UHGV virus genome: UHGV-0121572
Strand: one strand, 5' to 3'
DNA: 34,306 nucleotides
Source of the DNA: a virus
Each line of letters starts with the position of its first letter. Positions within the stretch are counted from its first letter, which is position 1. A program made the translations under genes and the position numbers. This document shows, piece after piece, positions 9,088 to 29,170 of the stretch. The notes under the pieces are model-generated. The model had not been told where the DNA came from. It was given only the letters and a program-made list of their open reading frames with translations, and did no database searches.

Positions 9088-9097
9088 GGTGACTTTT

Positions 9098-11589: not shown

Positions 11590-11594
11590 TTATT

Positions 11595-12266: not shown

Positions 12267-12276
12267 ATGAGTTTTT

Positions 12277-12319: not shown

Positions 12320-13363
12320 TTATATGATACTACCGAACAATTCATAGGGGATAAAGTTGATAACTATTTGTCCCAGTCGATTATTTAATTCTTTCATTCG
12401 TTCTTGAAGGGGAATGAGTTCATTTCGCACAAAAACTCGACTCGCCTTCTCCACATCCCCAAATCCCCCGACATTATTTGGCATAATTCCCATCATCTGA
12501 GGCGGTACGCGGTGCGCAGCCATCATGTCATCGCGGCTGACATTTTTGATATTCAGAAACTCATCCTTCGCCGCGACCTCTGACAACGGGATAATCTGAA
12601 GCCCGTCTTTTTTGCCGTTAGGCGAGTACATAAACAGGTTGCGGAAGTTACCCGGTCCTTTGGCGCTTTTCATCGCGTTGCGGAGGTTGTTCACGTCCTC
12701 CTGGTTCTGCGCGGCATCGGTCATGTACATGATGAAGCCCGCATGACTGCCGTTAATGTAATACTTGCGACGGAACAGCGTGGCGGACTCATTGAGCAGG
12801 GCTGACGGAATAGCAGAAAGATAGCCGGGCAGGCCATAGATCTCCTGATTTATGTCCGGTTCCATCAGATGGAAAATGCTGCCTTTCGTGAACTGATACG
12901 GCTGCGTGGTCATGCCGTATTGCACAAACCAGTAGGTATCCAGGTCTAACCCGCGTCGGGTGTATTTTGCCAGCGCAGGTTCAAGGGCGATAACTTCACC
13001 GAAGCGGTTCGTGCGTTTCTCCAGATAGGCGTTACCAAATACCAGATAGTCCTGTACAAAACGCGAAAAAGCCTGTTGGCTGAGCAGCGGATGAGGGATA
13101 TAGGTACTGGTCAGAATGTTGCACTTTACTGCAATCGGGGAACTGTGATGCACGGCAGCGCGGAAGGTGCGCGCCAGTCCGTCAAAGCTGACGGGCGGCT
13201 CATACCAACGGTCCATCTGTACGCATTCCACATAGTCCAGTAATTCTCGGCGGTCCAGAACTGGAACGGGATCGCCGAAGCTGAATGCTTCGGCTGTAGT
13301 CTGGTTTTTATGCTGGATCTGATTCGTCGCCGCAGTGCGGTTTTTCTTACTCTTTCCCATCAA
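12320..13363 (-). CDS. Q: Portal protein (P2 gpQ family)
   Basis: 347-aa ORF in the conserved leftward Q-P pair, start overlapping the stop of the terminase ATPase gene; size and context match P2 Q. Confidence 0.85.
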   Translation of the reverse strand: MMGKSKKNRTAATNQIQHKNQTTAEAFSFGDPVPVLDRRELLDYVECVQMDRWYEPPVSFDGLARTFRAAVHHSSPIAVKCNILTSTYIPHPLLSQQAFSRFVQDYLVFGNAYLEKRTNRFGEVIALEPALAKYTRRGLDLDTYWFVQYGMTTQPYQFTKGSIFHLMEPDINQEIYGLPGYLSAIPSALLNESATLFRRKYYINGSHAGFIMYMTDAAQNQEDVNNLRNAMKSAKGPGNFRNLFMYSPNGKKDGLQIIPLSEVAAKDEFLNIKNVSRDDMMAAHRVPPQMMGIMPNNVGGFGDVEKASRVFVRNELIPLQERMKELNNRLGQIVINFIPYELFGSII

Positions 13364-15126
13364 AAAATCTCCACAATATTGCTGGTATTGGCGGACTCGC
13401 CCTGCAGCGGTTCGTTAAACAGTGCGTGCATCGTTGCCCAGGCCAGATCGGCGTGGCTGGCTTCTTCGCTGCGGCTGGCTTCATAGGTTGGGCGGTTGCC
13501 ACTGGCGGTGGTTGCGCGACGGATTGCCATGAATGACTGCGCAATGTCGGTGTGCCCGGCGTCAAACTCCAGACGGCGGTGGCTGATAATGTCGTAGGCC
13601 TTGAGTACCAGGGCGTTTTTAACGTTGGGGTTGTAGACAAACTCCCGGACGGCAGGAAAGAACGCTTTCACGTTCTCGTAAACCCCGTGACCAACGCCGG
13701 TTGAGTCGATACCGATATAAGTCACGTTGTACTGTTCGGTCAGTTTTTTGATGGCGTCAGCCTGGGCGCGAAAGTCCATTCCGCGCCACTGGTGACGCTC
13801 AAGAATGCGGAACTTGCCGCCCGGCACGGCTGGCGGAGCCACCACCACGCATCCGGCGCTGTCGCCATTCTGCGTACCTTTCGCCGGGTCATAACCGATC
13901 CATACTTCGCGCCAGCCAAACGGGCGCAGGGCCAGTGCATGAAAGTCAGTCCAGACTTCCCAGCTGTCTACCATGCACGCCTGCAGCTCGCTGAGCGGGA
14001 ACACGGACGCGAGATCGTCCACAAACTCGCACATCAGCAGGTTCTGGTATTCGTCCGGGCTGTACTCCATGCGCAACTGGTCAAGGTCGAACAGGTTACA
14101 GCCGCCGCGCACCGCATCTTCCACGGTGACTATCTGGCGGTATTGCCCGTCTGCGCACAGCAGGCCCGGGGCCAGATTGCTGTGGGACAGGTCGATGTCC
14201 ACCTTATCGGCTTTGTTGCGCCCACGGTTGAACAGCGCACCGGACCAGAACGGATAAGCACTGTGGGTCAGGCTGGATGGCGTGGAAAAATAGGTTTGTC
14301 GCCATTTTTTGTGAATAGCCATACCGGAAGCCACTTTGCGCAGCTCCTGGAATTTCGGTATCCAGAAATATTCATCCAGATACAGGTTGCCGTGGTAACT
14401 CTGGGCCGTGCGGGCATTGGTGCCGAGGAAGTAAAGCGTGGCCCCGTTAGGAAGCACCATCGGATCGCCTTTCAGCTCCACCTCGACTTCTTTGGCGAAG
14501 TCGATGATGTACTGCTTAAAGACGTGAGCCTGTGCCTTACTGGCAGAAAGGAAAATCTGGTTACGTCCGGTCAGCAGGGCGTCAATCAGGGCTTCACGGG
14601 CAAAGTAAAAGGTCGCGCCGATCTGGCGTGACTTCAGCAGGTTGCGGATGCGGTTGGTTTTTCCGGCTTCCCACCAGTGGCGCTGGTAGTTGAACATGGA
14701 GGAATGGAAGATTTCCTCCAGCTTTTCAATCTGTTCATCGGTGAAAACGTTCTTTTCCGGCTGACGACGCGGGCCTTTGTTGCGGTTGGCGACGTTAGGG
14801 TTTAAGTCGGCTTCGTTGCCGCCATTGTTAAACTTGCCGATCCGCGCATGGCGCTCCGACTGGCGCGCCAGCAGGTCAATCTCTTTGAAATCTTTCCCTT
14901 CTTTGTGCTCCTTCATAATGAGCTGGCAGTAGCGGGCGGCGGTGGTGAGCTGCATCTGATCCAGCGGCCCATAGTCACCCCACTTGTCGCGTTTCTTCCA
15001 GCTGTGAACGGTTGCAACTTTCTCGCCCAGCATTTCAGCAATGCGGGCTACGCGGTATCCCTGAAAGTACAGCAGCATGGCCTGCCGACGGGGATCGAGA
15101 TCTGCGGGTGTCAGTGTGGTGTTCAT
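13360..15126 (-). CDS. P: Terminase large (ATPase) subunit (P2 gpP family)
   Basis: 588-aa ORF divergent from the O-N-M-L operon; typical P2 P size and position. Confidence 0.85.
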   Translation of the reverse strand: MNTTLTPADLDPRRQAMLLYFQGYRVARIAEMLGEKVATVHSWKKRDKWGDYGPLDQMQLTTAARYCQLIMKEHKEGKDFKEIDLLARQSERHARIGKFNNGGNEADLNPNVANRNKGPRRQPEKNVFTDEQIEKLEEIFHSSMFNYQRHWWEAGKTNRIRNLLKSRQIGATFYFAREALIDALLTGRNQIFLSASKAQAHVFKQYIIDFAKEVEVELKGDPMVLPNGATLYFLGTNARTAQSYHGNLYLDEYFWIPKFQELRKVASGMAIHKKWRQTYFSTPSSLTHSAYPFWSGALFNRGRNKADKVDIDLSHSNLAPGLLCADGQYRQIVTVEDAVRGGCNLFDLDQLRMEYSPDEYQNLLMCEFVDDLASVFPLSELQACMVDSWEVWTDFHALALRPFGWREVWIGYDPAKGTQNGDSAGCVVVAPPAVPGGKFRILERHQWRGMDFRAQADAIKKLTEQYNVTYIGIDSTGVGHGVYENVKAFFPAVREFVYNPNVKNALVLKAYDIISHRRLEFDAGHTDIAQSFMAIRRATTASGNRPTYEASRSEEASHADLAWATMHALFNEPLQGESANTSNIVEIF

Positions 15127-15172
15127 GGCACAAACCTACAGCCTTGAATGAAGGCTTTCCCCGCCTGCGGTT

Positions 15173-15190
15173 TGTGTGGTTGTCGGTACA
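15173..15190. promoter_or_regulatory. Late-promoter activator site (TGT-N12-ACA, Ogr/B-type) in the P/O divergent intergenic region
   Basis: TGTGTGGTTGTCGGTACA centred ~87 bp upstream of the O start; P2/186 late promoters use a TGT-N12-ACA dyad bound by the zinc-finger activator Ogr/B. Confidence 0.45.
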
Positions 15191-15268
15191 AATACCGCGC
15201 ATTGTTTCACTACCCCCATCACCGCAACCATAAGGCTCCAGTAAGTTTTTTCTAACGGAGCACGGCTC

Positions 15269-16102
15269 ATGACAGTGAAAGCAAAGCGTTTTCGCATCGG
15301 GGTGGAAGGTGCCACCACCGACGGACGCGAAATCCAGCGTGAATGGCTGGAACAGATGGCAGCCAGCTACAACCCGGCGGTGTATACCGCGCTGATTAAC
15401 CTTGAGCACATCAAGTCTTATCTGCCGGACAGCACCTTTAACCGCTACGGCAAGGTGACGGCGCTGTTTGCTGAAGAAATAACGGAAGGTCCGCTGGCAG
15501 GAAAGATGGCGCTGTATGCCGATGTTGAGCCAACGGAGTCCCTGGTGGAGCTGGTGAAAAAAGGCCAGAAATTATTCACCTCTATGGAAGTCAGCCCGAA
15601 GTTTGCTGATACGGGCAAAGCCTACCTGGTCGGCCTGGCTGCCACTGATGACCCTGCCAGTCTGGGTACGGAAATGCTGACATTCAGCGCCAGTGCAGCC
15701 CATAACCCGCTGGCAAACCGCAAGCAGAATCCCGCCAATCTCTTTACCGCTGCAGAGGAAACGGTGATCGAACTGGAAGAAATCCAGGACGACAAACCGT
15801 CCCTGTTTGCCCGCGTCACGGCGCTGTTTACCAAAAAAGAGCAGTCAGACGATGCCCGGTTCTCTGATGTGCATAAGGCCGTGGAGCTGGTCGCCACTGA
15901 GCAGCAAAACCTGAGCGGACGCACCGAAAAATCCCTGTCTGAGCAGGAAGAACGCCTGTCTGAGCTGGAGACTGCTCTGCAGGAGCAGCAAACCGCCTTT
16001 AACGAACTGGTGAATAAGCTGAGTCATGAAGACAGCCGCCAGGACTACCGCCAGCGTGCAACAGGCGGTAACGCCCCCGCTGACACTCTGACCAATTGCT
16101 GA
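15269..16102 (+). CDS. O: Capsid scaffolding protein (P2 gpO family)
   Basis: N-terminus (…RFRIGVEGATTDGREI…NLEHIKSYLPD…) and LVGLAATDDPASLGTE block match P2 O as recalled. Confidence 0.9.
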   Translation: MTVKAKRFRIGVEGATTDGREIQREWLEQMAASYNPAVYTALINLEHIKSYLPDSTFNRYGKVTALFAEEITEGPLAGKMALYADVEPTESLVELVKKGQKLFTSMEVSPKFADTGKAYLVGLAATDDPASLGTEMLTFSASAAHNPLANRKQNPANLFTAAEETVIELEEIQDDKPSLFARVTALFTKKEQSDDARFSDVHKAVELVATEQQNLSGRTEKSLSEQEERLSELETALQEQQTAFNELVNKLSHEDSRQDYRQRATGGNAPADTLTNC

Positions 16103-16118
16103 TGGAGCACAAAACCCG

Positions 16119-17177
16119 ATGAAGAAGAATACCCGCTTTGCTTTTAACGCTTATCTGCAGCAGCTGGCGCGTCTGAACGGTGTGGCAGTTGAAGAACTGT
16201 CCAGCAAGTTCACCGTAGAGCCGTCTGTGCAGCAGACGCTGGAAGACCAGATCCAGCAGTCCGCCTCTTTCCTGACGCTGATTAACGTCACGCCAGTGAC
16301 TGAGCAGTCTGGTCAGTTGCTGGGGCTGGGTGTTGGCAGCACCATTGCCGGAACCACTGATACCGCAGCTAAAGAGCGTGAGCCTGTCGATCCGACGCTG
16401 ATGGTCGATGTGGAATATAAATGCGAGCAGACCAACTTTGACACGGTGCTGACCTACGCGAAGCTGGATCTGTGGGCGAAGTTTCAGGATTTCCAGGTGC
16501 GCATCCGTGACGCCATCGTGAAACGTCAGGCACTGGACCGCATCATGATCGGCTTTAACGGCGTGAAGCGTGCGAAAACCTCCAACCGTAGCGAAAACCC
16601 GCTGCTGCAGGATGTGAATAAAGGCTGGCTGCAGAAAATCCGTGAGGATGCACCGGATCACGTCATGGGCAGCACCACCACGGGCGGTGAAACCACACCG
16701 GGCGCAGTGAAAGTCGGGAAAGGTGGCGAATATGCCAACCTGGACGCGGTGGTGATGGATGCCGTCAATGAGCTTATCGACGTGGTCTACCAGGACGATG
16801 ACGATCTGGTGGTGATTTGCGGGCGTGAACTGCTGTCTGACAAGTATTTCCCGCTGGTCAACAAAGAGCAGGAAAACAGTGAAAAACTGGCTGCCGATAT
16901 GATCATCAGTCAGAAACGCATGGGTGGCCTGCAGGCGGTGCGTGCGCCGTTCTTCCCGCCGAATGCACTGCTGATCACCCGTCTGGATAACCTGTCCATC
17001 TACTGGCAGGAAGATACCCGCCGCCGTTCAGTTATCGACAACCCGAAACGTGACCGGATTGAAAATTTTGAATCCGTTAACGAAGCCTATGTGGTTGAGG
17101 ACTACCGCTGCGCTGCACTGGTGGAAAACATCCAGATTGGTGACTTCAGCGCCGCCGCAGCAGAAACCGGAGCGTAA
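16119..17177 (+). CDS. N: Major capsid protein (P2 gpN family)
   Basis: Strong recalled similarity to P2 N (…RFAFNAYL…FTVEPSV…NKEQENSEKLAADMIISQKR…ENFESVN…). Confidence 0.9.
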   Translation: MKKNTRFAFNAYLQQLARLNGVAVEELSSKFTVEPSVQQTLEDQIQQSASFLTLINVTPVTEQSGQLLGLGVGSTIAGTTDTAAKEREPVDPTLMVDVEYKCEQTNFDTVLTYAKLDLWAKFQDFQVRIRDAIVKRQALDRIMIGFNGVKRAKTSNRSENPLLQDVNKGWLQKIREDAPDHVMGSTTTGGETTPGAVKVGKGGEYANLDAVVMDAVNELIDVVYQDDDDLVVICGRELLSDKYFPLVNKEQENSEKLAADMIISQKRMGGLQAVRAPFFPPNALLITRLDNLSIYWQEDTRRRSVIDNPKRDRIENFESVNEAYVVEDYRCAALVENIQIGDFSAAAAETGA

Positions 17178-17180
17178 TTC

Positions 17181-17831
17181 ATGAGCCTGAGTCCCGCACG
17201 GCAGCATCGCCTGCGCGTTCAGGCTGAACAGGCCGCTCGCGAGGGGGGCAGTGTTCGCCACGCGTCGGGCTATGACCTGATGCTGCTGCAACTGGCGGAA
17301 GACCGCCGCCGTCTCAAGGGCGTTCAGTCCACGGTCAAAAAAGCGGAAATCAAGGTGGAGCTGCTGCCGAAATATGCCGCCTGGGCGGAGGGCGTTCTGG
17401 CTGCCGGAGGCGCTCAACAGGATGACGTGCTGATGTACGTGATGCTGTGGCGCATTGATGCTGGAGATTATGCCGGGGCGCTGGAGATCGGGCGTCATGC
17501 CCTGCGTCATGGCTGGGTGATGCCGCTGGGTAACCGCAACGTGCAGACCGTGCTGGCAGAGGAAATGGCAGACGCGGCGCAGAGCGCAATGCTTGCCGCC
17601 ACCGGCTTTGATGCCGATCTGTTGCTGCAGACGCTGGAGCTGACAGACGGTCTGGATATGCCGGACCAGTCACGGGCGCGTCTGCATAAAGCGATTGGCG
17701 CTGTCCTGAGTGAAAGCAACCCGGCTTCCGCCCTTAATCATCTCAACCATGCGTTACAGCTCGATCCCCGCTGTGGCGTGAAAAAAGACAAACAGCAGCT
17801 GGAGCGCAGACTGCGCAATGACAGCCGCTGA
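17181..17831 (+). CDS. M: Terminase small/endonuclease subunit (P2 gpM family)
   Basis: 216-aa ORF directly after N in the conserved O-N-M-L order. Confidence 0.8.
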   Translation: MSLSPARQHRLRVQAEQAAREGGSVRHASGYDLMLLQLAEDRRRLKGVQSTVKKAEIKVELLPKYAAWAEGVLAAGGAQQDDVLMYVMLWRIDAGDYAGALEIGRHALRHGWVMPLGNRNVQTVLAEEMADAAQSAMLAATGFDADLLLQTLELTDGLDMPDQSRARLHKAIGAVLSESNPASALNHLNHALQLDPRCGVKKDKQQLERRLRNDSR

Positions 17832-17926
17832 CAGAACGTGCCCCCGCGCACGGGCGGCACGGGGTGGCGAAAGGCACTGCCACATCAAAACCCCGTCCAC
17901 CGCCCTCTATTTCAGGAGAAAGCAGC

Positions 17927-18391
17927 ATGAAGTTTGTTGCGCCAGAACAGGCACCGGAACAGGCGGAAATCATCAGAAACACGCCGTTCTGGCCTGATGT
18001 GGACCTGTCGGAGTTTCGCAGTGTCATGCGCACTGACGGCACGGTGACGCAGCCGCGTTTAAAGCAGGTTGCGCTGTCGGCAATTTCGGAGGTCAACGCA
18101 GAGCTGTATGAGTTTCGCAGACGTCAGCAGATGCTGGGATATGCCTCGCTGGCAGAGGTTCCGGCTGAACAGCTGGACGGCAAAAGTGAGCGCATTCATC
18201 ACTATTTCAACGCGGTTTACTGCTGGGCGCGCGCCATGCTCAACGAGCGTTATCAGGACTATGACGCCACGGCATCCGGTGTGAAGCGGGGCGAGGAACT
18301 GGCGGAAGCAAGCGGTGATTTGTGGCGTGACGCCCGCTGGGCCATCAGCCGGGTGCAGGATGCGCCGCACTGCACAGTGGAGCTTATCTGA
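17927..18391 (+). CDS. L: Head completion/stabilisation protein (P2 gpL family)
   Basis: ORF 17864..18391; ATG at 17927 with AGGAGA RBS (MKFVAPEQ…); conserved position after M. Confidence 0.8.
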   Translation: MKFVAPEQAPEQAEIIRNTPFWPDVDLSEFRSVMRTDGTVTQPRLKQVALSAISEVNAELYEFRRRQQMLGYASLAEVPAEQLDGKSERIHHYFNAVYCWARAMLNERYQDYDATASGVKRGEELAEASGDLWRDARWAISRVQDAPHCTVELI

Positions 18392-18594
18392 TGAAAGTGC
18401 GTGCGCATCAGTATGACACGGTGGACGCGCTTTGCTGGCGTCATTACGGGCGCACGCAGGGTGTCACGGAGCAGGTACTGAAGGCAAATCCGGGGCTTGC
18501 CGAATACGGCCCCTTTTTACCTCACGGGCTGCAGGTGGAGTTGCCGGACATTCCGACCACCACCACCGTGCAGACCGTCCAGCTATGGGACTGA
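18391..18594 (+). CDS. X: Tail protein X (P2 gpX family)
   Basis: 67-aa ORF (same length as P2 X), start overlapping the L stop. Confidence 0.7.
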   Translation: MKVRAHQYDTVDALCWRHYGRTQGVTEQVLKANPGLAEYGPFLPHGLQVELPDIPTTTTVQTVQLWD

Positions 18595-18597
18595 ATT

Positions 18598-18813
18598 ATG
18601 ACGCTGGAGCGAATCAGCGCCTTTATCACGTATTGCATCGCCGTCGTGCTGGCCTGGCTGGGCGATTTGTCCATCAAGGATGCCTCAACGCTGGGCGGCC
18701 TGATGATTGGTGTGCTGATGCTGGCTATCAACTGGTACTACAAACACAAAGCCTACCAGCTTCTGCGCGACGGGCAGATCTCGCGGGAGGACTATGAATC
18801 CATCAATCGTTAA
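18598..18813 (+). CDS. Putative holin (small two-TM protein, gpY position)
   Basis: 71 aa with two hydrophobic segments and a charged C-terminus; immediately precedes the endolysin gene. Confidence 0.6.
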   Translation: MTLERISAFITYCIAVVLAWLGDLSIKDASTLGGLMIGVLMLAINWYYKHKAYQLLRDGQISREDYESINR

Positions 18814-19306
18814 ACGCTGCCTTGTCGGGGCCGTGCTGGCTATTGCTGCCACGCTGCCGGGTTTTCAGCAGCTTCACACCTCCGTGGAAGGGCTGAAACT
18901 GATTGCCGATTACGAAGGTTGTCGTCTGCAGCCGTATCAGTGCAGCGCGGGTGTCTGGACCGACGGCATTGGTAATACGTCGGGCGTCATTCCCGGCAAA
19001 ACCATTACGGAGCGACAGGCAGCAGAAGGGCTGATCTCCAACGTGCTGCGTGTGGAGCGGTCACTGGAAAGGTGTGTGAAGCAACAGCCACCGCAGAAAG
19101 TGTATGACGCGGTGGTGTCATTTGCCTTCAACGTGGGGACAGGCAATGCCTGCAGCTCCACGCTGGTGAAATTGCTCAATCAGCGGCGCTGGGCGGATGC
19201 GTGCCGACAGTTGCCGCGCTGGGTGTATGTAAAAGGTGTGTTTAATCAGGGGCTGGATAACCGCCGTGCGCGGGAGATGGCCTGGTGTTTACAGGGAGCA
19301 AACTGA
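18794..19306 (+). CDS. Endolysin, T4-lysozyme-like (GH24) with N-terminal signal-anchor-release (SAR)-like segment
   Basis: Hydrophobic N-terminus CLVGAVLAIAATLPG then a YEG…GVWTDGIGNT block resembling the GH24 catalytic region. Confidence 0.75.
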   Translation: MNPSIVKRCLVGAVLAIAATLPGFQQLHTSVEGLKLIADYEGCRLQPYQCSAGVWTDGIGNTSGVIPGKTITERQAAEGLISNVLRVERSLERCVKQQPPQKVYDAVVSFAFNVGTGNACSSTLVKLLNQRRWADACRQLPRWVYVKGVFNQGLDNRRAREMAWCLQGAN

Positions 19307-19307
19307 A

Positions 19308-19685
19308 ATGAAAAAGAAATTAATCAGCGGACTGTTTCTGATGTTATGGATGGCGCTGTTAATCGCAGCAATGGTGTATCCGCAGGGGATTTTTCCGGTA
19401 CTGGCAGCGTCCGGCGTTTGGGTAGCCTGTTTGCTGACATGGGCGGTAATTCCGGTAGCACTGGCTGCGTTAATTAAGAATGGCCTGCTCTGGCAGGAGT
19501 TAAGGGCATCTTTGCTGAAGACAATTACCCGAAAAGAAAACGTATTTATCAGTTGGGTGATGCGATTGCTGATTGTTGTAAGTCTCGCCTGGACGGGGTG
19601 GGCTATTACCCTGGTCTTTTATCTACTGACCGTTATTGCCTTCTGGATCACCCGTAATCAGATGGCGCAACAGGTAGCAGCATGA
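19308..19685 (+). CDS. lysA: LysA-like lysis accessory membrane protein (multi-TM)
   Basis: ORF 19236..19685; ATG at 19308 (MKKKLISGLFLMLWMALLIAAMV…) gives 125 aa with about four hydrophobic segments; P2 lysA position. Confidence 0.55.
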   Translation: MKKKLISGLFLMLWMALLIAAMVYPQGIFPVLAASGVWVACLLTWAVIPVALAALIKNGLLWQELRASLLKTITRKENVFISWVMRLLIVVSLAWTGWAITLVFYLLTVIAFWITRNQMAQQVAA

Positions 19686-20110
19686 ATCGGTTGCTGCTGG
19701 TTGTGCTGGCGTTATTACTGGCGGCGCTGGGCTGGCAGACGTGGCGGCTGGCTGATGCCAGCCAGACCATTAGCACGCAGGCAGACGAGCTGCAGAGCAA
19801 AAGCCAGTCACTGGCAAAGAGCAACAGCCAGCTTATCAGCCTGGCCATTCTGACTGAAACCAATAACCGGGAGCAGGCGCGGCTCTATGCCGAAGCAGAA
19901 CAGACCAGCGCGCTGCTGAGACAACGACAACACCGGATCGAGGAACTGAAACGTGAGAACGAGGATTTACGCCGCTGGGCTGATACTCCTTTGCCTGCTG
20001 ACATTATCCGGCTGCGGGAACGTCCGACGCTCACCGGAGGTGCAGCTTACCGTCAGTGGTTGTCCGCGAGTGACGCCGTGTCGGCTGGAGCAGGCAACGC
20101 CACGCACTAA
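19682..20110 (+). CDS. lysB: i-spanin (Rz-like, P2 LysB equivalent)
   Basis: N-terminal TM anchor MNRLLLVVLALLLAALGW followed by a charged coiled-coil-like periplasmic domain. Confidence 0.7.
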   Translation: MNRLLLVVLALLLAALGWQTWRLADASQTISTQADELQSKSQSLAKSNSQLISLAILTETNNREQARLYAEAEQTSALLRQRQHRIEELKRENEDLRRWADTPLPADIIRLRERPTLTGGAAYRQWLSASDAVSAGAGNATH

Positions 20111-20243
20111 CGGTGATCTGGACGCGTTGCTGGATGAAACGGAGGCCGCCTGGGCGGTCTGTGCAGACAAAGTGGACATGATTATTGCGTGTCAGGAGCG
20201 AAACAGTGAACAAACCACAATCCCTGCGCCACGCCCTCAATAA
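19953..20243 (+). CDS. lysC: o-spanin lipoprotein (Rz1-like, P2 LysC equivalent) overlapping lysB out of frame
   Basis: Lipobox LTLSGC after a signal peptide (MRTRIYAAGLILLCLLTLSGCG); starts inside lysB in another frame and extends past its stop, as in P2 lysB/lysC. Confidence 0.6.
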   Translation: MRTRIYAAGLILLCLLTLSGCGNVRRSPEVQLTVSGCPRVTPCRLEQATPRTNGDLDALLDETEAAWAVCADKVDMIIACQERNSEQTTIPAPRPQ

Positions 20244-20637
20244 AGCGGTGCCTTATGTCCGCAATAACCCGGACAAACTGCATCTGTTTGTGGATAACGG
20301 TTCGCTGGTTGCCACGGGGGCCAGCTCCATGTCGTGGGAGTACCGTTACACCCTGAACGCGGTGATTGAGGATTTCAGCGGCGACCAGAATCTGCTGATG
20401 GCCCCGGTTTTGCTGTGGCTGAGGAATAACCAGCCCGATGCCATCAATAACCCGGCGTTACGGGAAAAACTATTCACCTTTGAGGTGGATATTCTGCGCA
20501 ACGATGTCTGTGATATCAGCCTGAACCTGCAACTGACGGAACGTGTGCTGGTCAGCACTGACGGCAGTGTGTCGAGCGTTGAAGCTGTAGCGGAACCCGA
20601 TGAACCTGAAGAAATGTGGACGGTGAAACGTGGCTGA
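20206..20637 (+). CDS. R: Tail completion protein R (P2 gpR family)
   Basis: ORF 20185..20637 (TTG); GTG at 20206 with AGGAG RBS gives an N-terminus (…KPQSLRHALNKAV…NPDKLHLFVDNGS…) aligning with P2 R as recalled. Confidence 0.8.
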   Translation: MNKPQSLRHALNKAVPYVRNNPDKLHLFVDNGSLVATGASSMSWEYRYTLNAVIEDFSGDQNLLMAPVLLWLRNNQPDAINNPALREKLFTFEVDILRNDVCDISLNLQLTERVLVSTDGSVSSVEAVAEPDEPEEMWTVKRG

Positions 20638-21076
20638 ACTGCAGAAAGTGGACGACTGGCTGAGTGCTTTGTTGGCGAATCTGGAACCAGCCGCCAGAAG
20701 CCGCATGATGCGCCAGCTGGCGCAGGAACTGCGCCGGACACAGCAGCAGAATATCAGGATGCAGCGCAACCCTGACGGCAGCAGCTATGAACCGCGACGG
20801 GCAACAGCACGCAGTAAAAAGGGGCGCATCAAACGTCAGATGTTTGCAAAGCTGCGCACCACAAAATACCTGAAAACTGCCGCCAGCGCCGACTCTGCCA
20901 GCGTGCAGTTTGAAGGTAAGGTGCAGCGCATTGCCCGTGTTCACCATTACGGCTTGCGCGATCGCGTCAGTCGCAAAGGACCTGAGGTCCGTTACGCAGA
21001 GCGTCGCCTTCTGGGTGTAAATGATGATGTTGAGGCAATGACCCGCGACATGATTCTGCAATGGCTGGCGGGGTGA
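20630..21076 (+). CDS. S: Tail completion protein S (P2 gpS family)
   Basis: 148-aa ORF overlapping the R stop; conserved R-S pair. Confidence 0.8.
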   Translation: MAELQKVDDWLSALLANLEPAARSRMMRQLAQELRRTQQQNIRMQRNPDGSSYEPRRATARSKKGRIKRQMFAKLRTTKYLKTAASADSASVQFEGKVQRIARVHHYGLRDRVSRKGPEVRYAERRLLGVNDDVEAMTRDMILQWLAG

Positions 21077-21080
21077 TCTT

Positions 21081-21098: not shown

Positions 21099-21144
21099 AG
21101 TTGCAGCTCTGTCGCCTTTCTTCCCCTGATGGCAACCTTTCCCT

Positions 21145-21723
21145 ATGAACGCACAATTAACCGAAATCATGCGCCTTATCACCAACCTGATCCGCTCAGG
21201 TGTAGTCACCGAAGTGGACAGGGCAAACTGGCTGTGTCGGGTGAAAACTGGCGACCTTGAAACCAACTGGATTAACTGGCTGACGCTGCGCGCGGGTAAT
21301 GCCCGCACATGGTGGAAACCATCGGAAGGTGAGCAGGTGGTGCTGCTGAGTCTGGGCGGCAATCTGGAGACCGCCTTTGCGCTGCCCGCTGTCTATTCGA
21401 ATCAGTTCGCACCACCGTCGACGTCGGCGGACGCCTGCGTGACAGAACATCCTGACGGTGGCTGGTTTGAATACGAACCCGCCACCGGGCGCTGGTATGT
21501 CAGGGGCATCAAATCAATGGTCATTGAGGCCGCTGACAACATCACCATGAAAACCAGTGAGTTTGTACTGGAGGCTGACCGCACGCGCATTAACAGCGAA
21601 GTTGTGATCAATGGTGGCGTTACCCAGGGCGGCGGAGCGATGAGTTCTAACGGGATCGTGGTTGATGCACATCAGCATACTGGCGTCCTGAAAGGCGGCG
21701 ACACAACCGGAGGCCCGGTATGA
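21145..21723 (+). CDS. V: Baseplate spike/assembly protein V (P2 gpV family)
   Basis: 192-aa ORF first in the V-W-J-I-H-G operon; Gly-rich C-terminal part typical of gpV spike proteins. Confidence 0.85.
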   Translation: MNAQLTEIMRLITNLIRSGVVTEVDRANWLCRVKTGDLETNWINWLTLRAGNARTWWKPSEGEQVVLLSLGGNLETAFALPAVYSNQFAPPSTSADACVTEHPDGGWFEYEPATGRWYVRGIKSMVIEAADNITMKTSEFVLEADRTRINSEVVINGGVTQGGGAMSSNGIVVDAHQHTGVLKGGDTTGGPV

Positions 21724-22079
21724 CGCTTTATAGCGGGATGAACAATACCAGCGGTAAAGCCATTACTGATATTGACCATCTGCGCCAGTCGGTGCGGGAC
21801 ATTCTGCTGACACCGCAGGGTAGCCGCATTGCCCGTCGTGAATATGGTTCCCTGCTGTCGGCACTGATAGACCAGCCACAAAATCCGGCATTACGCCTGC
21901 AGGTCATGTCGGCAGTGTATGTGGCGCTGAGTCGCTGGGAGCCACGGCTGACGCTGGATTCCATAACCATCAACAGCAATTTTGACGGTTCTATGGTGGT
22001 GGAGCTGGCCGGGCGGCGGAATAACGGTGTGCCTGTGTCCCTTTCCGTATTAACAGGAGCAGAGAATGGCAGTGATTGA
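21720..22079 (+). CDS. W: Baseplate protein W (gpW/gp25 family)
   Basis: 119-aa ORF overlapping the V stop; conserved order. Confidence 0.85.
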   Translation: MTLYSGMNNTSGKAITDIDHLRQSVRDILLTPQGSRIARREYGSLLSALIDQPQNPALRLQVMSAVYVALSRWEPRLTLDSITINSNFDGSMVVELAGRRNNGVPVSLSVLTGAENGSD

Positions 22080-22974
22080 CCTTTCGCAGTTGCCTGCGCC
22101 GCAGATTGTGGATGTGCCGGACTTTGAGACGCTGCTTGCTGAACGCAAGGCAGAATTTGTGGCACTTCATCCGAAAGATGAGCAGGAAGCAGTGATGCGT
22201 ACGCTGGAACTTGAATCTGAACCCGTTACCAAATTGTTGCAGGAGAACGCTTACCGTGAGTTGCTTCTGCGCCAGCGCATTAACGAAGCCGCGCAGGCGG
22301 TGATGGTGGCTTATGCCATAGGGGGCGATCTGGACCAGCTCGCCGCCAATTACAACGTGAAACGCCTGACGGTGACACCTGCTGATGATGACGCTGTGCC
22401 GCCCGTTGCGGCAGTGATGGAAAGCGATGAAGCGTTACGCCTGCGTGTGCCTGCAGCCTTTGAAGGGCTTTCGGTTGCGGGGCCAACAGCAGCTTATGAA
22501 TTTCATGCCCGAAGCGCCGACGGTCGGGTGGCGGATGCCAGTGCAACCAGTCCGGCACCTGCAGAGGTGGTGCTGACTGTCCTTAGCCGCGAAGGCGACG
22601 GAACAGCAGAAAAAGACTTGCTGGATGTGGTGGAAAAAGCCCTGAACAGTGAGAACGTCCGTCCGGTGGCTGACCGTCTGACGGTTCGCAGCGCAGAAAT
22701 CATCCCGTACCGTGTGGAAGCCACCATTTTTCTTTATCCGGGACCGGAAGCAGAGCCGGTAATGGCAGCGGCAAAAGTCAGCCTGCAGAGGTACATCGCC
22801 AGTCAGACGCGGCTCGGTCGGGATATTCGCCGTAGTGCTATTTTTGCCGCGCTGCATGTTGAAGGTGTTCAACGTGTGGAACTGGCTTCTCCGCTGGCGG
22901 ATGTGGTTCTGAACAAAAGGCAGGCGGCATCATGTACGCAGTGGAGCGTGACCAACGGAGGAACGGATGAATAG
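22066..22974 (+). CDS. J: Baseplate assembly protein J
   Basis: 302-aa ORF; conserved order and size. Confidence 0.85.
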   Translation: MAVIDLSQLPAPQIVDVPDFETLLAERKAEFVALHPKDEQEAVMRTLELESEPVTKLLQENAYRELLLRQRINEAAQAVMVAYAIGGDLDQLAANYNVKRLTVTPADDDAVPPVAAVMESDEALRLRVPAAFEGLSVAGPTAAYEFHARSADGRVADASATSPAPAEVVLTVLSREGDGTAEKDLLDVVEKALNSENVRPVADRLTVRSAEIIPYRVEATIFLYPGPEAEPVMAAAKVSLQRYIASQTRLGRDIRRSAIFAALHVEGVQRVELASPLADVVLNKRQAASCTQWSVTNGGTDE

Positions 22975-23572
22975 TCTGCTGCCACCGGGTTCAACTTCAC
23001 TGGAGCGCCGACTGGCGCAGACCTGTAGCGGGATTTCTGATCTGCAGGTGCCGCTGCGTGACTTGTGGAATCCGGCAACCTGTCCGATCAGTTTCCTGCC
23101 TTATCTCGCCTGGGCGTTCTCTGTGGATCGCTGGGACGAGGGCTGGACAGAAAGCGTCAAGCGCCAGGTGGTGAAGGATGCTTTTTATATTCATCAGCAT
23201 AAAGGAACCACCAGTGCCGTGCGGCGGGTGGTGGAGCCGTTCGGCTTCCTGATACGCATTATTGAGTGGTGGCAGACTGGAGAAACACCGGGCACGTTTC
23301 GCCTGGACATCGGCGTGCAGGACCAGGGCATCACTGAAGATACCTATCTGGAACTTGAGCGGCTGATAAGCGATGCCAAACCATGTAGCCGTCACATGAT
23401 CGGCATGTCCATCAATCTGCAAACCAGTGGCCCGCACTGGGTAGGGGCCGCCAGCTATCTTGGTGAAGAAATCACGATCTATCCGTATATCAACGAAACA
23501 ATTATTTCTGGCGGCACCGCGCATGAAGGCGGGGCGGTCCATGTTATTGACACAATGAGAGTGAATCCATGA
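22967..23572 (+). CDS. I: Tail protein I (baseplate)
   Basis: 201-aa ORF; conserved order. Confidence 0.8.
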   Translation: MNSLLPPGSTSLERRLAQTCSGISDLQVPLRDLWNPATCPISFLPYLAWAFSVDRWDEGWTESVKRQVVKDAFYIHQHKGTTSAVRRVVEPFGFLIRIIEWWQTGETPGTFRLDIGVQDQGITEDTYLELERLISDAKPCSRHMIGMSINLQTSGPHWVGAASYLGEEITIYPYINETIISGGTAHEGGAVHVIDTMRVNP

Positions 23573-25098
23573 GCACAAAATTTTATACCCTGCTGACGGA
23601 TATTGGCGCGGCGAAACTTGCCAGCGCCGCCGCGCTCGGTGTGCCGTTAAAAATTACCCATATGGCGGTCGGCGATGGCGGCGGAACATTACCAACGCCG
23701 GACGCAAAGCAGACTGCACTGGTAAATGAGAAACGCCGGGCTGCGCTGAATATGCTCTATATCGACCCGCAAAACAGCAGCCAGATTATTGCTGAACAGG
23801 TGATCCCTGAAAACGAGGGCGGTTGGTGGATACGTGAAGTGGGCCTGTTTGATGAATCCGGGGCATTGATTGCCGTGGGCAACTGCCCGGAAAGCTATAA
23901 GCCGCAACTGGCTGAAGGCAGCGGGCGCACCCAGACCGTGCGCATGGTGTTGATTACCAGCAGCACGGACAATATCACCCTGAAAATCGACCCTGCCGTC
24001 GTGCTGGCAACCCGCAAGTATGTGGATGATAAGGTACTGGAGCTGAAGGTGTACGTGGATGATCAGATGGCAAAACATCTTGCAGCACCGGACCCGCATT
24101 CACAGTATGCACCCAAAGAAAGTCCTACGTTTACCGGGACACCCAAAGCGCCAACGCCAGCGGCGGGGAATAATACCACGCAGGTTGCGACCACCGCGTT
24201 TGTTCAGGCGGCACTGACGGCTCTTATTAATGGTGCGCCAGCCACGCTGGACACGCTGAAAGAAATTGCCGCAGCCATAAACAATGACCCGAAATTCAGT
24301 ACCACCATTAACAATGCGCTGGCACTGAAAGCGCCGCTGTCGAGTCCGGCACTCACCGGAACGCCAACCGCACCGACTGCGGCACAGTCGGTCAACAATA
24401 CACAGATTGCCACCACGGCATTTGTGAAATCGGCGATTGCGGCAATGGTGGGTTCTGCACCTGCGGCACTGGATACACTGAACGAACTGGCGGCGGCGCT
24501 GGGGAATGACCCGAACTTTGCCACGACAATGCTTAATGCACTGGCAGGTAAACAACCGCTGGACAATACGCTGACTAATTTGAGTGGAAAGGATGTTGCT
24601 GGTCTTCTCGCATACCTTGGTTTGGGAGAAGGTTCTGCATTACCTGTAGGAGTACCAGTTCCGTGGCCTTCAGCCACTCTGCCGACAGGCTGGTTGAAAT
24701 GCAATGGCGCTGCCTTTGATAAGGTTAAATATCCCCGTCTTGCTACAGCATATCCATCAGGGAAACTACCTGATCTCCGTGGTGAGTTTATTCGTGGCTG
24801 GGATGACGGACGAGGCGTTGATGCTGGACGTGCTTTATTGAGCATTCAGACTGGGATGCTGGAAAAACATCGCCATATTGTTGTTGCCAACGATGGGTAT
24901 GATTCAAAAGAGGAATGGGAACTGGCGACAATCTTCAGAAGAGCATACACGCAAGGCCGGGGGCTTGATGCTGCTGATGTCGGAGGGACTCTGATTCCAT
25001 CACCAACGCTACATACACGAGGGAGTATTGGTAACACAGGTGGAAGCGAAACCCGTCCGCGAAATATTGCATTTAACTTTATCGTGAGGGCTGCATAA
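23569..25098 (+). CDS. H: Tail fibre protein H
   Basis: 509 aa; internal repeats (TGTPxAPT…NNTQxATTAFV…APAxLDTLxExAAAxxNDPxF) typical of P2-type tail fibres; distal C-terminal part of the Mu S / P1 S type. Confidence 0.85.
   Translation: MSTKFYTLLTDIGAAKLASAAALGVPLKITHMAVGDGGGTLPTPDAKQTALVNEKRRAALNMLYIDPQNSSQIIAEQVIPENEGGWWIREVGLFDESGALIAVGNCPESYKPQLAEGSGRTQTVRMVLITSSTDNITLKIDPAVVLATRKYVDDKVLELKVYVDDQMAKHLAAPDPHSQYAPKESPTFTGTPKAPTPAAGNNTTQVATTAFVQAALTALINGAPATLDTLKEIAAAINNDPKFSTTINNALALKAPLSSPALTGTPTAPTAAQSVNNTQIATTAFVKSAIAAMVGSAPAALDTLNELAAALGNDPNFATTMLNALAGKQPLDNTLTNLSGKDVAGLLAYLGLGEGSALPVGVPVPWPSATLPTGWLKCNGAAFDKVKYPRLATAYPSGKLPDLRGEFIRGWDDGRGVDAGRALLSIQTGMLEKHRHIVVANDGYDSKEEWELATIFRRAYTQGRGLDAADVGGTLIPSPTLHTRGSIGNTGGSETRPRNIAFNFIVRAA
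24605..24630. other. gix/hix-like 26-bp recombination site inside H (junction of constant and variable fibre parts)
   Basis: TTCTCGCATACC-TT-GGTTTGGGAGAA: imperfect palindrome around a 2-bp core, resembling Hin/Gin/Cin invertase crossover sites (recalled consensus …AAACC-nn-GGTTT…). Confidence 0.4.
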
Positions 25099-25700
25099 TG
25101 GATAACGCTGTATTAAATAGCGAGCTTATTGCCACGAAGGCGGGGAATATTACTGTCTATAACTATGATGGCGAAACACGGGAATATATTTCCACTTCAA
25201 ATGAATATCTTGCCGTTGGTGTCGGTATCCCGGCATATTCCTGTTTAGATGCTCCTGGCACATATAAGGCTGGTTATGCAATCTGCCGTTCAGTAGATTT
25301 AAACTCATGGGAATATATGCCAGACCATCGCGGTGAAATTATCTATAGCACCGAAACAGGAGAAGCAAAAGAAATCACGGTGCCGGGTAATTATCCTGAA
25401 AATACAACCACTATCGCCCCGTTAACGCCATACGATAAATGGGATGGTGAGAAATGGGTGACGGATACCGAGGCACAGCATAGCGCCGCAGTAGACGCAG
25501 CAGAAGCACAGCGTCAGTCACTGATTGATGCTGCAATGGCTTCCATTAGTCTGATTCAGTTGAAATTGCAGGCCGGGCGGAAGCTGATGCAGGCAGAGAC
25601 CACCCGACTTAACACTGTGCTGGATTACATCGATGCGGTGACGACAACGGATACCAGCACTGCGCCGGATGTCATCTGGCCTGAACTGTCGGAGGCGTAG
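25098..25700 (+). CDS. G: Tail fibre assembly protein G (Tfa family)
   Basis: 200 aa; C-terminus …LDYIDAVTTTDTSTAPDVIWPE characteristic of Tfa/gpG/U chaperones. Confidence 0.8.
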   Translation: MDNAVLNSELIATKAGNITVYNYDGETREYISTSNEYLAVGVGIPAYSCLDAPGTYKAGYAICRSVDLNSWEYMPDHRGEIIYSTETGEAKEITVPGNYPENTTTIAPLTPYDKWDGEKWVTDTEAQHSAAVDAAEAQRQSLIDAAMASISLIQLKLQAGRKLMQAETTRLNTVLDYIDAVTTTDTSTAPDVIWPELSEA

Positions 25701-25943: not shown

Positions 25944-25966
25944 CCACCATTTTATATAAATGGTGG
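25944..25966 (-). terminator. Stem-loop (possible terminator) just downstream of the orphan 290-aa gene
   Basis: CCACCATTT-TATAT-AAATGGTGG perfect 9-bp stem; on the - strand followed by a moderately U-rich stretch. Confidence 0.3.
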
Positions 25967-26846: not shown

Positions 26847-26983
26847 TTTTATTTTCCTTATAGATGCTATGAAGGTTATTATTACATAAATGTTCGATAA
26901 ATGTTTTTAAGTTTTAACTTCGTTTCGGTGCCAATAAATATACATTACAAGTGAAATTTATCAAGGTAACAAAAGGAGAGCTA

Positions 26984-27276: not shown

Positions 27277-27324
27277 ATCAGCATTATTTTGATTATCCCT
27301 GCAAGTAGACAAATACCGTAATTT

Positions 27325-27342: not shown

Positions 27343-27418
27343 ACTGCGCTTAGCTGTTTGTCAGGCACAATCACTTCAACATAGGGCGAAGCCTAATCCA
27401 ATCAGGAGGTTCGCCACT

Positions 27419-28591
27419 ATGGCTCAGGATTACCACCACGGGGTGCGCGTTGTTGAAGTCAACGAAGGCACCCGATCCATTACCACGGTGAGCACCGCCA
27501 TCGTGGGCATGGTCTGCACGGGCGATGATGCCGATGCAAAAATGTTTCCTCTTAATAAACCCGTGCTGATCACTGATGTACTGACCGCCAGCGGTAAAGC
27601 GGGTGAGTCCGGCACGCTGGCCCGTTCGCTGGATGCCATCGCTGACCAGGCAAAACCCGTGACCGTTGTTGTGCGTGTGCCGCAGGGTGAAACGGAAGAA
27701 GAAACCACGACTAATATTATCGGCGCAGTGACCGCTGAAGGTAAAAAAACAGGCATGAAAGCCCTGTTATCTGCCCAGACACAGCTCGGCGTTAAACCGC
27801 GCATTCTCGGCGTGCCAGGTCACGATAACAAAGCCGTTGCGACTGAGTTGCTGAGCGTGGCGCAAAGCCTGCGTGGGTTTGCTTACCTGTCAGCGTATGG
27901 CTGCAAGACGGTACAGGAGGCGATCACTTACCGTGAAAACTTCAGCCAGCGCGAAGGGATGCTGATCTGGCCTGACTTTACTGGCTGGGACACGGTGCTG
28001 AATGACGAAGCAACGGCATATGCCACCGCCCGTGCGCTCGGTCTGCGCGCCAAAATTGATGAGCAGACCGGGTGGCACAAGAGCCTGTCCAACGTAGGCG
28101 TGAACGGTGTCACCGGAATTTCTGCTGATGTGTTCTGGGATCTGCAGGACCCGGCAACCGATGCAGGTCTGCTTAACCAGAACGACGTCACCACCCTTAT
28201 CCGCAAGGACGGTTTCCGCTTCTGGGGTTCCCGCTGTCTGAGTGATGATCCGCTCTTTGCCTTCGAAAACTACACCCGCACGGCGCAGGTGCTGACGGAC
28301 ACGATGGCAGAAGCGCACATGTGGGCGGTGGACAAACCGCTTAACCCGTCGCTGGCCCGCGACATTATCGAAGGTATCCGCGCCAAAATGCGCAGTCTGG
28401 TAAGCCAGGGCTATCTCATTGGTGGTGATTGCTGGCTGGATGAGTCGGTGAACGACAAAGACACGCTGAAAGCCGGAAAACTCACCATCGACTATGACTA
28501 CACGCCAGTGCCGCCACTTGAAAATCTGATGCTGCGCCAGCGCATCACCGATCAGTACCTGGTGAATTTCGCCAGCCAGGTCAGCGCGTAA
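27419..28591 (+). CDS. FI: Tail sheath protein (P2 gpFI family)
   Basis: 390 aa; strong AGGAGG RBS; conserved FI-FII-E-T-U-D order. Confidence 0.9.
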
Positions 28592-28600
28592 GGGGACAAC

Positions 28601-29116
28601 ATGGCTTTACCACGCAAATTAAAACACCTGAACCTGTTTAACGACGGGAACAACTGGCAGGGGATCGTTGAGTCGCTGACGCTGCCGAAATTCACCCGCA
28701 AATATGAGAAGTATCGCGGCGGCGGAATGCCGGGTGCAGTGGATGTGGATCTGGGGCTTGATGACAGTGCGCTGGACACAGAATTTTCCATTGGTGGTAC
28801 TGAACTGCTGCTGTTTAAACAGATGGGCAAAGCCACGGTGGATGGCATCCAGCTGCGCTTTACCGGCTCTATCCAGCGTGACGATACCGGGGAAGTGCAG
28901 GCCGTGGAGCTTGTGGTGCGTGGACGTCACAAAGAAGTGGATTCCGGTGAGTGGAAGACGGGCGAAAGCAACACCACCAAAGTGACCAGTACCAACAGCT
29001 ACGCGAAGCTGACCATCAATGGTGAGGTGCTCTATGAAGTGGACCTCATCAACATGGTGGAAATTGTGGACGGTGTGGACCTGATGGAAGCGCACCGCAA
29101 CGCCCTCGGCCTCTGA
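28601..29116 (+). CDS. FII: Tail tube protein (P2 gpFII family)
   Basis: 171 aa directly after the sheath gene. Confidence 0.9.
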   Translation: MALPRKLKHLNLFNDGNNWQGIVESLTLPKFTRKYEKYRGGGMPGAVDVDLGLDDSALDTEFSIGGTELLLFKQMGKATVDGIQLRFTGSIQRDDTGEVQAVELVVRGRHKEVDSGEWKTGESNTTKVTSTNSYAKLTINGEVLYEVDLINMVEIVDGVDLMEAHRNALGL

Positions 29117-29170
29117 TGTATCTGAACGGCGCGGGATTCCGCGCCAGAACCCAATTTACAGGACAACAAA

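Follow-up and report, generated by a model that had tools for sequence, protein, structure and literature searches.

The question raised by this locus is whether three short inverted repeats (dyads) in front of its late operons are binding sites for an activator of the Ogr/B type found in phages P2 and 186 and, if so, how many promoters they serve and which genes lie outside their control. The window, meaning the whole stretch of 34,306 nucleotides that was analysed (UHGV-0121572), is a prophage of the P2 family (Peduoviridae) in E. coli, situated between rcdA and ybjL. Host DNA is present at its left edge, where rcdA occupies 50-586 and is 99.9% identical to E. coli, and ybjL is the right-hand neighbour in sibling prophages. 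Bases 14000-22000 are 97% identical to Klebsiella phage 4LV2017 as well as to many E. coli and Klebsiella prophages. The D region is carried by 1,330 of 5,426 complete E. coli genomes, and a map of late transcription in this prophage would apply to a type present in roughly a quarter of such genomes.

The genes follow the order int, CI, CII and others, A, DinI, cargo, Q and P (minus strand), O to S, V to G, cargo, and FI to D, and the order within O to S is that annotated in 4LV2017, P2 and 186, while V to G is ordered as in relatives. Pfam supports the identification of P as terminase, O as the GPO scaffold, V as the baseplate spike with its Apex domain, FI as the sheath, and D. The late genes are arranged as follows:

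12320..15126, minus strand: P-Q, encoding the terminase large subunit (13360-15126; Pfam Terminase_5/6N/6C) and the portal (12320-13363)
15269..21076, plus strand: O to S, encoding scaffold O (15269-16102; Pfam Phage_GPO), capsid N, small terminase M, L, X, lysis genes, R and S
21145..25700, plus strand: V, W, J, I, H and G, the baseplate and tail fibre genes (Pfam Phage_base_V and Apex for V)
27419..34256, plus strand: FI, FII, E, T, U and D, encoding tail sheath, tube, tape measure and others (Pfam sheath and GPD domains); the operon runs on past the window end, where the ogr gene is expected from sibling prophages

Three dyads stand out from background

A first-pass annotation of this DNA had proposed that TGT-N12-ACA dyads mark three late promoters, upstream of O, V and FI. 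All three sequences are located exactly where it placed them, each being the inner 18 bases of a longer element:

15172..15191, centre 15181.5: P-O dyad, 20-mer TTGTGTGGTTGTCGGTACAA, 18-mer TGTGTGGTTGTCGGTACA at 15173-15190; exact match, 22.9 bits
21080..21099, centre 21089.5: pV dyad, 20-mer TTGTATCAGCACTGATACAA, 18-mer TGTATCAGCACTGATACA at 21081-21098; exact match, 23.9 bits
27324..27343, centre 27333.5: pF dyad, 20-mer TTGTGTGAATAACGGTACAA, 18-mer TGTGTGAATAACGGTACA at 27325-27342; exact match, 23.5 bits

The distance of 55-90 bp given for them is also correct when counted from the dyad centre, which lies 87.5 bp from the start codon of O (ATG at 15269), 55.5 bp from that of V (ATG at 21145) and 85.5 bp from that of FI (ATG at 27419). 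All three sites fit TGT-N12-ACA perfectly, but the pattern by itself is uninformative, as its seven matches in the window compare with 8.7 +/- 2.95 expected and at least seven were reached in 77 of 100 shuffles. The other four matches lie at 11-28 and 21-38 (both in the host RcdA operator), at 15115-15132 (across the P start codon) and at 28635-28652 (in FII). The longer form TTGT-N12-ACAA with one mismatch is likewise at chance frequency (15 matches, 17.4 expected), and both patterns were dropped as discriminators. Exact TTGT-N12-ACAA is enriched, with four matches where 0.77 are expected, a count reached in one of 100 shuffles; three of the four are the dyads at O, V and FI, and the fourth lies at 10-29.

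The frequency of the bare pattern in shuffled sequence, together with the occurrence of a perfect TTGT-N12-ACAA in an unrelated host operator, would suit the view that the dyads are chance, functionless matches to a loose consensus. This view is effectively refuted by a matrix scan and by conservation. The whole-window scan, a check that the first-pass annotation had itself proposed, used a symmetrised position matrix that kept the window out of its own model: it drew on 15 distinct sites in seven other phages, after removal of two that were identical to sites in the window. Over the 34 kb the three dyads score 22.9-23.9 bits and are well apart from all other matches; the next-best score, 13.0 bits (15114-15133, across the P start codon), is at background, followed by 11.8 bits (34057-34076, within gene D) and 11.0 bits. 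For a set of 300 random Markov windows, the best score per window had a mean of 11.6 and a 95th percentile of 16.4 bits, and no third-best score was above 13.6 bits. The three dyads also occupy places homologous to the annotated P2 sites, two of which are annotated in 186 as well, and their arms are conserved over six genera in which centres and flanks have diverged. What makes the sites real is therefore the longer half-site, the position and the conservation rather than the match to TGT-N12-ACA.

The fourth exact match, at 10-29 (TTGTGTACAttTGTACACAA / TTGTGTACATTTGTACACAA), lies in the ybjJ-rcdA spacer and adjoins rcdA. It is identical to the RcdA operator established in this spacer by SELEX and footprinting (PMC3535384) and scores 1.4 bits with the phage matrix; it was accordingly rejected as an additional Ogr site. 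Its TTGT...ACAA ends, and the position of the prophage beside rcdA, raise the thought that the three dyads are bound by some other regulator, either host RcdA (box TTGTnnACA) or the phage proteins CI, Apl or CII. This is hardly credible, as the RcdA unit TTGTnnACA has a different spacing (PMC3535384) and its operator scores so poorly, while the dyads are conserved in Klebsiella, Salmonella and Yersinia phages at other integration sites and lie where P2 and 186 have their Ogr and B sites.

Half-site form and conservation across the clade

For comparison, the genomes of 4LV2017, ST512-KPC3phi13.2, Yersinia MLG42, SopEPhi, ST15-OXA48phi14.1, ST437-OXA245phi4.1, ST13-OXA48phi12.1 and ENT90 (seven genera) were fetched, together with PSP3. 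In ENT90 (Erwinia) a simple arm-match search gave no convincing dyads, the best candidates matching 5-6 of 8 arm positions, and this genome was left out; the clade set is thus the window and seven other genomes, from six genera. At all three loci in these eight genomes the form is TTGT-N12-ACAA, the exceptions being a final T or C for A in four sites. The complete element is an inverted repeat of about 20 bp, TTGTRYSR-N4-YSRYACAA, as expected for the target of a symmetric protein oligomer. The half-site is TTGT-R-Y-S-R; all 36 half-sites have the TGT, and 34-36 of them keep to R, Y, S and R at positions 5-8. This 20-bp model is far more specific than TGT-N12-ACA and could be used to annotate late promoters of the clade without false positives.

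The twelve central bases vary freely, as is seen in the examples from upstream of V (ATCAGCACTGAT, ACTGTTGTTCAT, GCCACCGCTGGT, GTCAGGGATGAC and ATCGTTAATCAT), and the same combination of kept TTGT/ACAA arms and variable centres holds throughout the eight clade genomes (six genera), in two further E. coli prophages and in 79 viral contigs. Across the clade the distance from dyad centre to start codon is 55.5 bp for P, 55.5-57.5 bp for V, 85.5-94.5 bp for O and 78.5-85.5 bp for FI. Counterparts of the V-side dyad at 55.5-57.5 bp are present in the window, the seven other clade genomes and the two E. coli siblings, and FI-side counterparts at 78.5-85.5 bp are present in all relatives, the P2 and 186 pJ sites included. 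When applied to the two independent E. coli prophages, the matrix returned exactly the expected sites, at the distances seen in the window (P 55.5, O 87.5, V 55.5 and FI 85.5 bp). Gene insertions upstream leave the dyads beside V and FI: in E. coli GN02461 a TIR gene separates S from V, ST512phi13.2 and ST437phi4.1 have additional ORFs, and in the window the 290-aa gene and an invertase remnant lie upstream of the FI dyad.

These insertions bear on whether the palindromes could act as RNA hairpins that terminate or stabilise upstream transcripts, for instance at the end of O to S. The pV dyad lends itself to such a role, being a perfect 9+2+9 palindrome placed 4 nt past the stop codon of S, with no other terminator found from S to V. 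A role in RNA is nevertheless very improbable. When genes are inserted between S and V the dyad moves with V, not with S; the fold energies are ordinary (z-scores -1.8, -1.1 and +0.9); no dyad is followed by a T-run and none coincides with a terminator call. Long complementary arms occur in the pV dyad alone, those of the pO and pF dyads being only about 4 bp, and what has been kept is the TTGT/ACAA sequence rather than pairing, since at each of positions 5-10 symmetry is found in no more than 3-12 of the 18 sites.

Comparison with P2, 186 and other relatives

P2 is described as having four late promoters, PP, PO, PV and PF, which are Ogr-dependent and share the consensus TGT-N12-ACA (PMC3931495; for the promoter sites, Christie and Calendar 1985 as cited there). 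Ogr is stated to bind inverted repeats centred about -55, with the alpha subunit of RNA polymerase being required (PMC3152322). The P2 record (NC_001895) lists one activator site for pO and pP between P and O (3057-3087), one before V and one before FI (17555-17583); the 186 record (NC_001317) lists one B site for p12 and pV (3798-3817) and one for pJ. The mapped starts of P2 and 186 lie 55.5-57.5 bp from the dyad centres, and in the P2 record the pV start coincides with the first base, A, of the V start codon.

The window resembles P2 in having its sites in the same three spacers, with a single site for the divergent pP and pO, in centre-to-start-codon distances for O, V and FI that are equal within a few bp, in a V start codon that falls on the start site (here a predicted one), and in the left half-site TTGTG. 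It differs in that its arms are perfect, whereas in P2 the right arm of the pO/pP and pF sites is CCA and the pV site has 11 central bases instead of 12, and in that P2 P has a 23-nt leader with a GAGG Shine-Dalgarno where none is predicted here. In P2, orf30 and a terminator lie between S and V; here the two genes are 68 bp apart, and no terminator was found between S and the pV dyad, so that pV may matter less than in P2. The activator of the clade is about 51% identical to Ogr.

With 186 the window shares the use of one B site by divergent promoters (p12 and pV in 186), an identical distance to the O homologue (87.5 bp), and a 186-like immunity region with CI, CII, Fil and DinI/Tum-like genes, which places the prophage closer to 186 in lifestyle. 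The 186 sites differ in their right arm, CCAG, and orf12 of 186 has a 23-nt leader with a GAGG Shine-Dalgarno. Upstream of V, dyad-like sites are found at 57 bp in P2 and at 56.5 bp in 186, the latter with the left half-site only.

The closest likeness is to the group of Fels-2, SopEPhi and Klebsiella 4LV2017 (Felsduovirus, Elveevirus, Kapieceevirus and others), which has the same TTGT-N12-ACAA form and geometry and differs only in the central bases of the dyads and in the cargo genes at the hotspots; the P-O and pV dyads of 4LV2017 are identical to those of the window. No late-promoter annotation was found in the fetched records of this group. The Delta-dependent promoters of satellite phage P4 and the late promoters of Smp131, which belong to other phages and other hosts, are likened here by description, the same TGT-N12-ACA consensus being reported for them (PMC3931495); for Smp131 a single dyad is given to PP' and PO' together (PMC3931495).

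On the evidence of scan, conservation and comparison the three dyads are predicted, with a probability of roughly 90%, to be activator sites of the Ogr/B type belonging to P2-family late promoters. As such they are an ordinary and well-understood regulatory feature of the family, to which the first-pass annotation had assigned them rightly; they do not challenge existing understanding, and their use lies mainly in annotation.

Four probable late promoters from three sites

The sites proposed upstream of O, V and FI are thus in place, but the count of three promoters drawn from them needs revision, because the P-O dyad is common to pP and pO, which makes four. This dyad almost certainly drives two divergent promoters, and there are almost certainly four late promoters for four late operons, P-Q on the minus strand included. 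That it serves both directions follows from the single annotated site in P2 and 186, from its palindromic form and from a P side that is in register with P2 pP and 186 p12. Pattern and matrix scans gave no second dyad for pP in the 142-bp P-O spacer, which argues for one shared site as in P2 and 186. Two candidates for a separate pP site were rejected: TGT-N12-ATC at 15203 does not fit, and the match at 15115-15132 straddles the P start codon at a background score of 13.0 bits.

When the P2 and 186 promoters were aligned on the dyad centre with the four candidate promoters of the window, -10-like hexamers were found in register in all four:

P side: window gTAGGTTtgtgccATG; P2 gTAGCCTtgccgtG(+1); 186 gTAGCCTtgccctG(+1)
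V side: window gCAACCTttccctATG; P2 gCAATCTcacatgcATG
FI side: window AACATA; P2 pF region GAAAAT/AAAATA

The promoter elements predicted from this alignment are the following:

15133..15138, minus strand: predicted -10 of pP, TAGGTT, at -12 to -7 from the A of the P ATG (15126, the predicted +1), aligned with TAGCCT at -12 to -7 from the mapped starts of P2 pP and 186 p12
15229..15234, plus strand: candidate -10 of pO, CATAAG, from alignment with P2 pO and 186 pV (mapped starts 55.5-56.5 bp from the centre)
21133..21138, plus strand: predicted -10-like element of pV, CAACCT, at -12 to -7 from the A of the V ATG (21145, the predicted +1), aligned with CAATCT of P2 pV
27378..27385, plus strand: candidate -10 region of pF, AACATA / CATAGG, in register with P2 pF and 186 pJ (mapped starts 57.5 bp from the centre)

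The pP hexamer keeps the form T-A-n-n-n-T in all clade variants (TAGGTT, TATGTT and TAGGCT). Starts are predicted at about 15237-15241 for pO and about 27389-27391 for pF; either transcript would have a leader of about 30 nt, in which the Shine-Dalgarno is GGAG for O and AGGAGG for FI. The register of the alignment and the distance of 55.5-57.5 bp to the P and V start codons would suit a spacing of about 55 bp between dyad and predicted start. A consensus pattern scan of the P-O and S-V spacers gave no sigma70-type promoter with a -35 element.

It may be argued instead that there are three one-way promoters, for O, V and FI, the P-O dyad serving pO only and P-Q being transcribed from another, unrecognised promoter. 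In keeping with this, there are only three dyads, the 142-bp spacer holding no second one, and a centre 55.5 bp from the P ATG leaves no room for a conventional leader on the P side. Such an arrangement is unlikely, as P2 and 186 have one annotated site for both directions with starts mapped 55.5 bp to either side, the P side of the window is in register with a T-A-n-n-n-T hexamer at -12 to -7, and no alternative sigma70-like promoter is predicted for P. The distance of 55.5 bp to the P ATG is moreover invariant in 89 of 89 genomes whereas that on the O side varies, which would be puzzling for a dyad that had nothing to do with P.

On the four-promoter reading, and by analogy with the established work on P2 and 186 from which activator binding, alpha-subunit contact and late timing are inferred, late transcription would proceed as follows. 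An activator encoded just past D, about 41 nt beyond the window end, would bind each inverted repeat of about 20 bp late in lytic growth, probably as a symmetric oligomer. With the repeat centred about 55 bp upstream of the transcription start, the activator would touch the alpha subunit of host RNA polymerase and so turn on promoters whose -10 is weak and which lack a usable -35. Owing to its symmetry, the P-O site would act both ways, leftward through pP on P-Q (terminase and portal) and rightward through pO on O to S (head and lysis genes), while the site at 21080 would serve pV (baseplate and fibres) and the site at 27324 would serve pF (sheath, tube, tape measure and D).

Predicted leaderless P and V transcripts

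The spacing on the P side leads to a modestly new proposal. The dyad centre is exactly 55.5 bp from the P ATG in the window, in the seven other clade genomes, in 89-3156 (the only E. coli sibling locus to extend over P) and in all 79 IMG/VR contigs, among which there are 15 distinct dyad sequences. The distance to O takes values of 85.5, 86.5, 87.5, 88.5 and 94.5 bp within the clade. In P2 pP and 186 p12 the mapped start is likewise 55.5 bp from the centre. The P start codon itself is secured by N-terminal homology and by a stop codon that lies in frame three codons before it. The predicted transcription start would thereby fall on the A of the P and V start codons (15126 and 21145), which would make both mRNAs leaderless.

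No GGAG or GAGG Shine-Dalgarno was found ahead of P or V; O has GGAG and FI has AGGAGG. An AGGT lying 8 nt upstream of the P ATG in the window could act as a weak Shine-Dalgarno if transcription started further upstream. On balance it is rather probable that the P (terminase large subunit) mRNA, like that of V in P2, is leaderless in the clade of Fels-2, SopEPhi and 4LV2017, its 5' end being the A of the start codon, and the same is predicted for V (baseplate spike). The activator site, the -10 and the start codon would then form one rigid unit, lacking the 23-nt leader and Shine-Dalgarno of P2 and 186. A literature search of titles and abstracts found no paper on leaderless P2-family late transcripts. 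From the rigid spacing of 55.5 bp to the start codons of P and V, leaderless late mRNAs are predicted for essential morphogenesis genes, which can be tested and, if true, would be a small addition to what is understood of P2-family gene expression.

The predicted activator gene

An ogr/B homologue downstream of D, outside the window, had also been anticipated. Such a gene is found in sibling prophages, and for the prophage studied here the evidence is by proxy, as only 50 nt of the window lie past D. In 4LV2017 and in E. coli ExPEC XM, GN02461 and 89-3156, D is followed by a gene for an Ogr/Delta zinc-finger protein; the sibling activator matches Pfam Ogr_Delta at 5e-22 and has the motif CX2CX22CX4C. 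In three E. coli prophages the Ogr_Delta gene starts 90 bp after D, and the last 50 nt of the window are identical to the D-ogr spacer of 89-3156, which has the same integration site and the same integrase. From these sequences, the ogr gene of this prophage would start about 41 nt beyond the window end.

The clade activators are 51-54% identical to Ogr, B and Pag. The interior of the zinc finger reads AAHTRSSF in the clade and AAHARTSRY in the P2 group, a difference that correlates with the sites and is to be read as a correlation only. With the clade matrix the experimentally defined P2 and 186 sites reach no more than 4-10.6 bits, owing to a right arm that reads CCA in place of ACA. The specificity of the activator of this lineage is accordingly an assumption.

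Cargo genes

The claim that no such dyad precedes the ATPase-HNH operon or the 290-aa gene is borne out, no matrix match above background being found there. The further conclusion, that these are not late phage genes, is plausible, but the missing dyad alone is weak evidence for it, and better support comes from their low G+C, their own sigma70-like promoters and terminators and the known P2 cargo slots that they occupy. Both cargo regions have a G+C of 36-38%, and the late genes one of 55.5%. The ATPase-HNH operon, identified as a Septu system (PtuA, 1.5e-124; PtuB, 2.6e-83), lies in the old/tin slot, where siblings have a retron, or SIR2 with an ATPase. The 290-aa gene, for which neither Pfam nor PADLOC gave a match, lies in the fun(Z)/sopE slot beside the C-terminal remnant of a Hin-type invertase (27007-27276).

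A -10-like AATAAT (27288..27283) is present on the leftward side of the symmetric pF dyad, 45-50 bp from its centre, and faces the 290-aa gene. Its register would suit a leftward, activator-dependent start near 27277, but it may well be a chance match in A+T-rich DNA. Promoter-like sites near the 290-aa gene number six, with 5.1 expected. The signals assigned to the cargo genes are these:

12275-12298: strong terminator after Septu
26964..26937: sigma70-like promoter of the 290-aa gene, TTGATA-16-TATATT
25966..25944: terminator of the 290-aa gene

The phage-regulated late operons can in this way be separated from self-contained cargo, namely Septu and the orphan 290-aa gene.

Start codons and spacers at the late dyads

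The late promoters of this prophage are marked by dyads, inverted repeats predicted to bind an Ogr/B-type activator. From the centre of the dyad in the P-O spacer to the P ATG (15126) the distance is exactly 55.5 bp in all 79 of 79 viral contigs (L015-L094) and in all reference genomes of the Fels-2/SopEPhi/4LV2017 clade, while the O-side distance from the same dyad varies by up to 9 bp. The V ATG (21145) lies 55.5-57.5 bp from the centre of its own dyad, pV, and no canonical Shine-Dalgarno sequence precedes P or V; on this spacing and absence, leaderless P and V mRNAs are predicted. The S-V spacer (21077-21144) is only 68 bp, and no terminator lies between the S stop (21076) and the pV dyad, whereas P2 carries orf30 and a terminator here. 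Transcription from pO, the O-side promoter of the P-O spacer, may thus also run on into the V operon.

Two further dyad-like matches are sub-threshold or indistinguishable from background. The bare TGT-N12-ACA match TGTGGTGTTCATGGCACA (15115-15132) spans both the ATG of P and the point where pP is predicted to start; its score, 13.0 bits, is at background level, and coding sequence and promoter elements confound its conservation. Within the 3' end of D, TTGCGTCATTCTCGCTACAA (34057-34076) scores a sub-threshold 11.8 bits. It lies about 280 bp upstream of the expected ogr start and is seen again in both E. coli sibling prophages, a conservation probably explained by coding.

Activator and lifestyle

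The zinc finger of the clade activators (L013 17198-17416; ogr genes of L004 and L006-L009) shares AAHTRSSF(Q/R)V; the corresponding stretch of P2 Ogr, 186 B and PSP3 Pag reads AAHARTSRY(I/L). The clade motif correlates with the symmetric ACAA right arms of the clade sites; in P2 and 186 the right arms are CCA. A DinI-like gene occupies the position of 186 tum, and together with 186-type CI and CII genes it suggests an SOS-inducible, 186-like rather than P2-like lifestyle.

9026-9331, DinI-like gene (Pfam 1.3e-22), downstream of replication gene A

Cargo genes and host flank

The operon that the first-pass annotation had described as ATPase-HNH is a Septu defence system, with a G+C content of 36%, in the P2 old/tin cargo slot. 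In the sibling prophages this slot holds a retron, SIR2 with an ATPase, HIRAN, Abi or SEFIR genes.

10366-12266, Septu operon (PtuA 1.5e-124, PtuB 2.6e-83)
12275-12298, strong hairpin terminator 3' of the operon, facing the Q end

The second cargo gene, an orphan whose 290-aa product has no match in Pfam or PADLOC, is also present in seven complete E. coli genomes; it occupies the slot of fun(Z) in P2 and of sopE in SopEPhi. The adjacent 89-aa ORF is the C-terminal remnant of a Hin/Gin-type DNA invertase; a full-length copy of that gene is present in the E. coli 89-3156 sibling prophage (L014 28727-29293).

25974-26846, minus strand, 290-aa orphan gene
26964..26937, minus strand, its sigma70-like promoter, TTGATA-16-TATATT
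25966..25944, minus strand, its terminator
27007-27276, plus strand, 89-aa ORF, Resolvase domain end and HTH_7
27283-27312, minus strand, promoter-like site TTGTCT-18-AATAAT

The last, leftward site lies by the symmetric pF dyad upstream of FI, with its -10 at 45-50 bp from the dyad centre, the register that a divergent, activator-dependent start at about 27277, directed toward the 290-aa gene, would need; it may be a chance occurrence in A+T-rich DNA.

The window opens with ~600 bp of host E. coli DNA, and the prophage lies between rcdA and ybjL. The perfect palindrome TTGTGTACATTTGTACACAA (10-29) is identical to the published RcdA operator of the ybjJ-rcdA spacer.

50-586, host gene rcdA, at the left window edge
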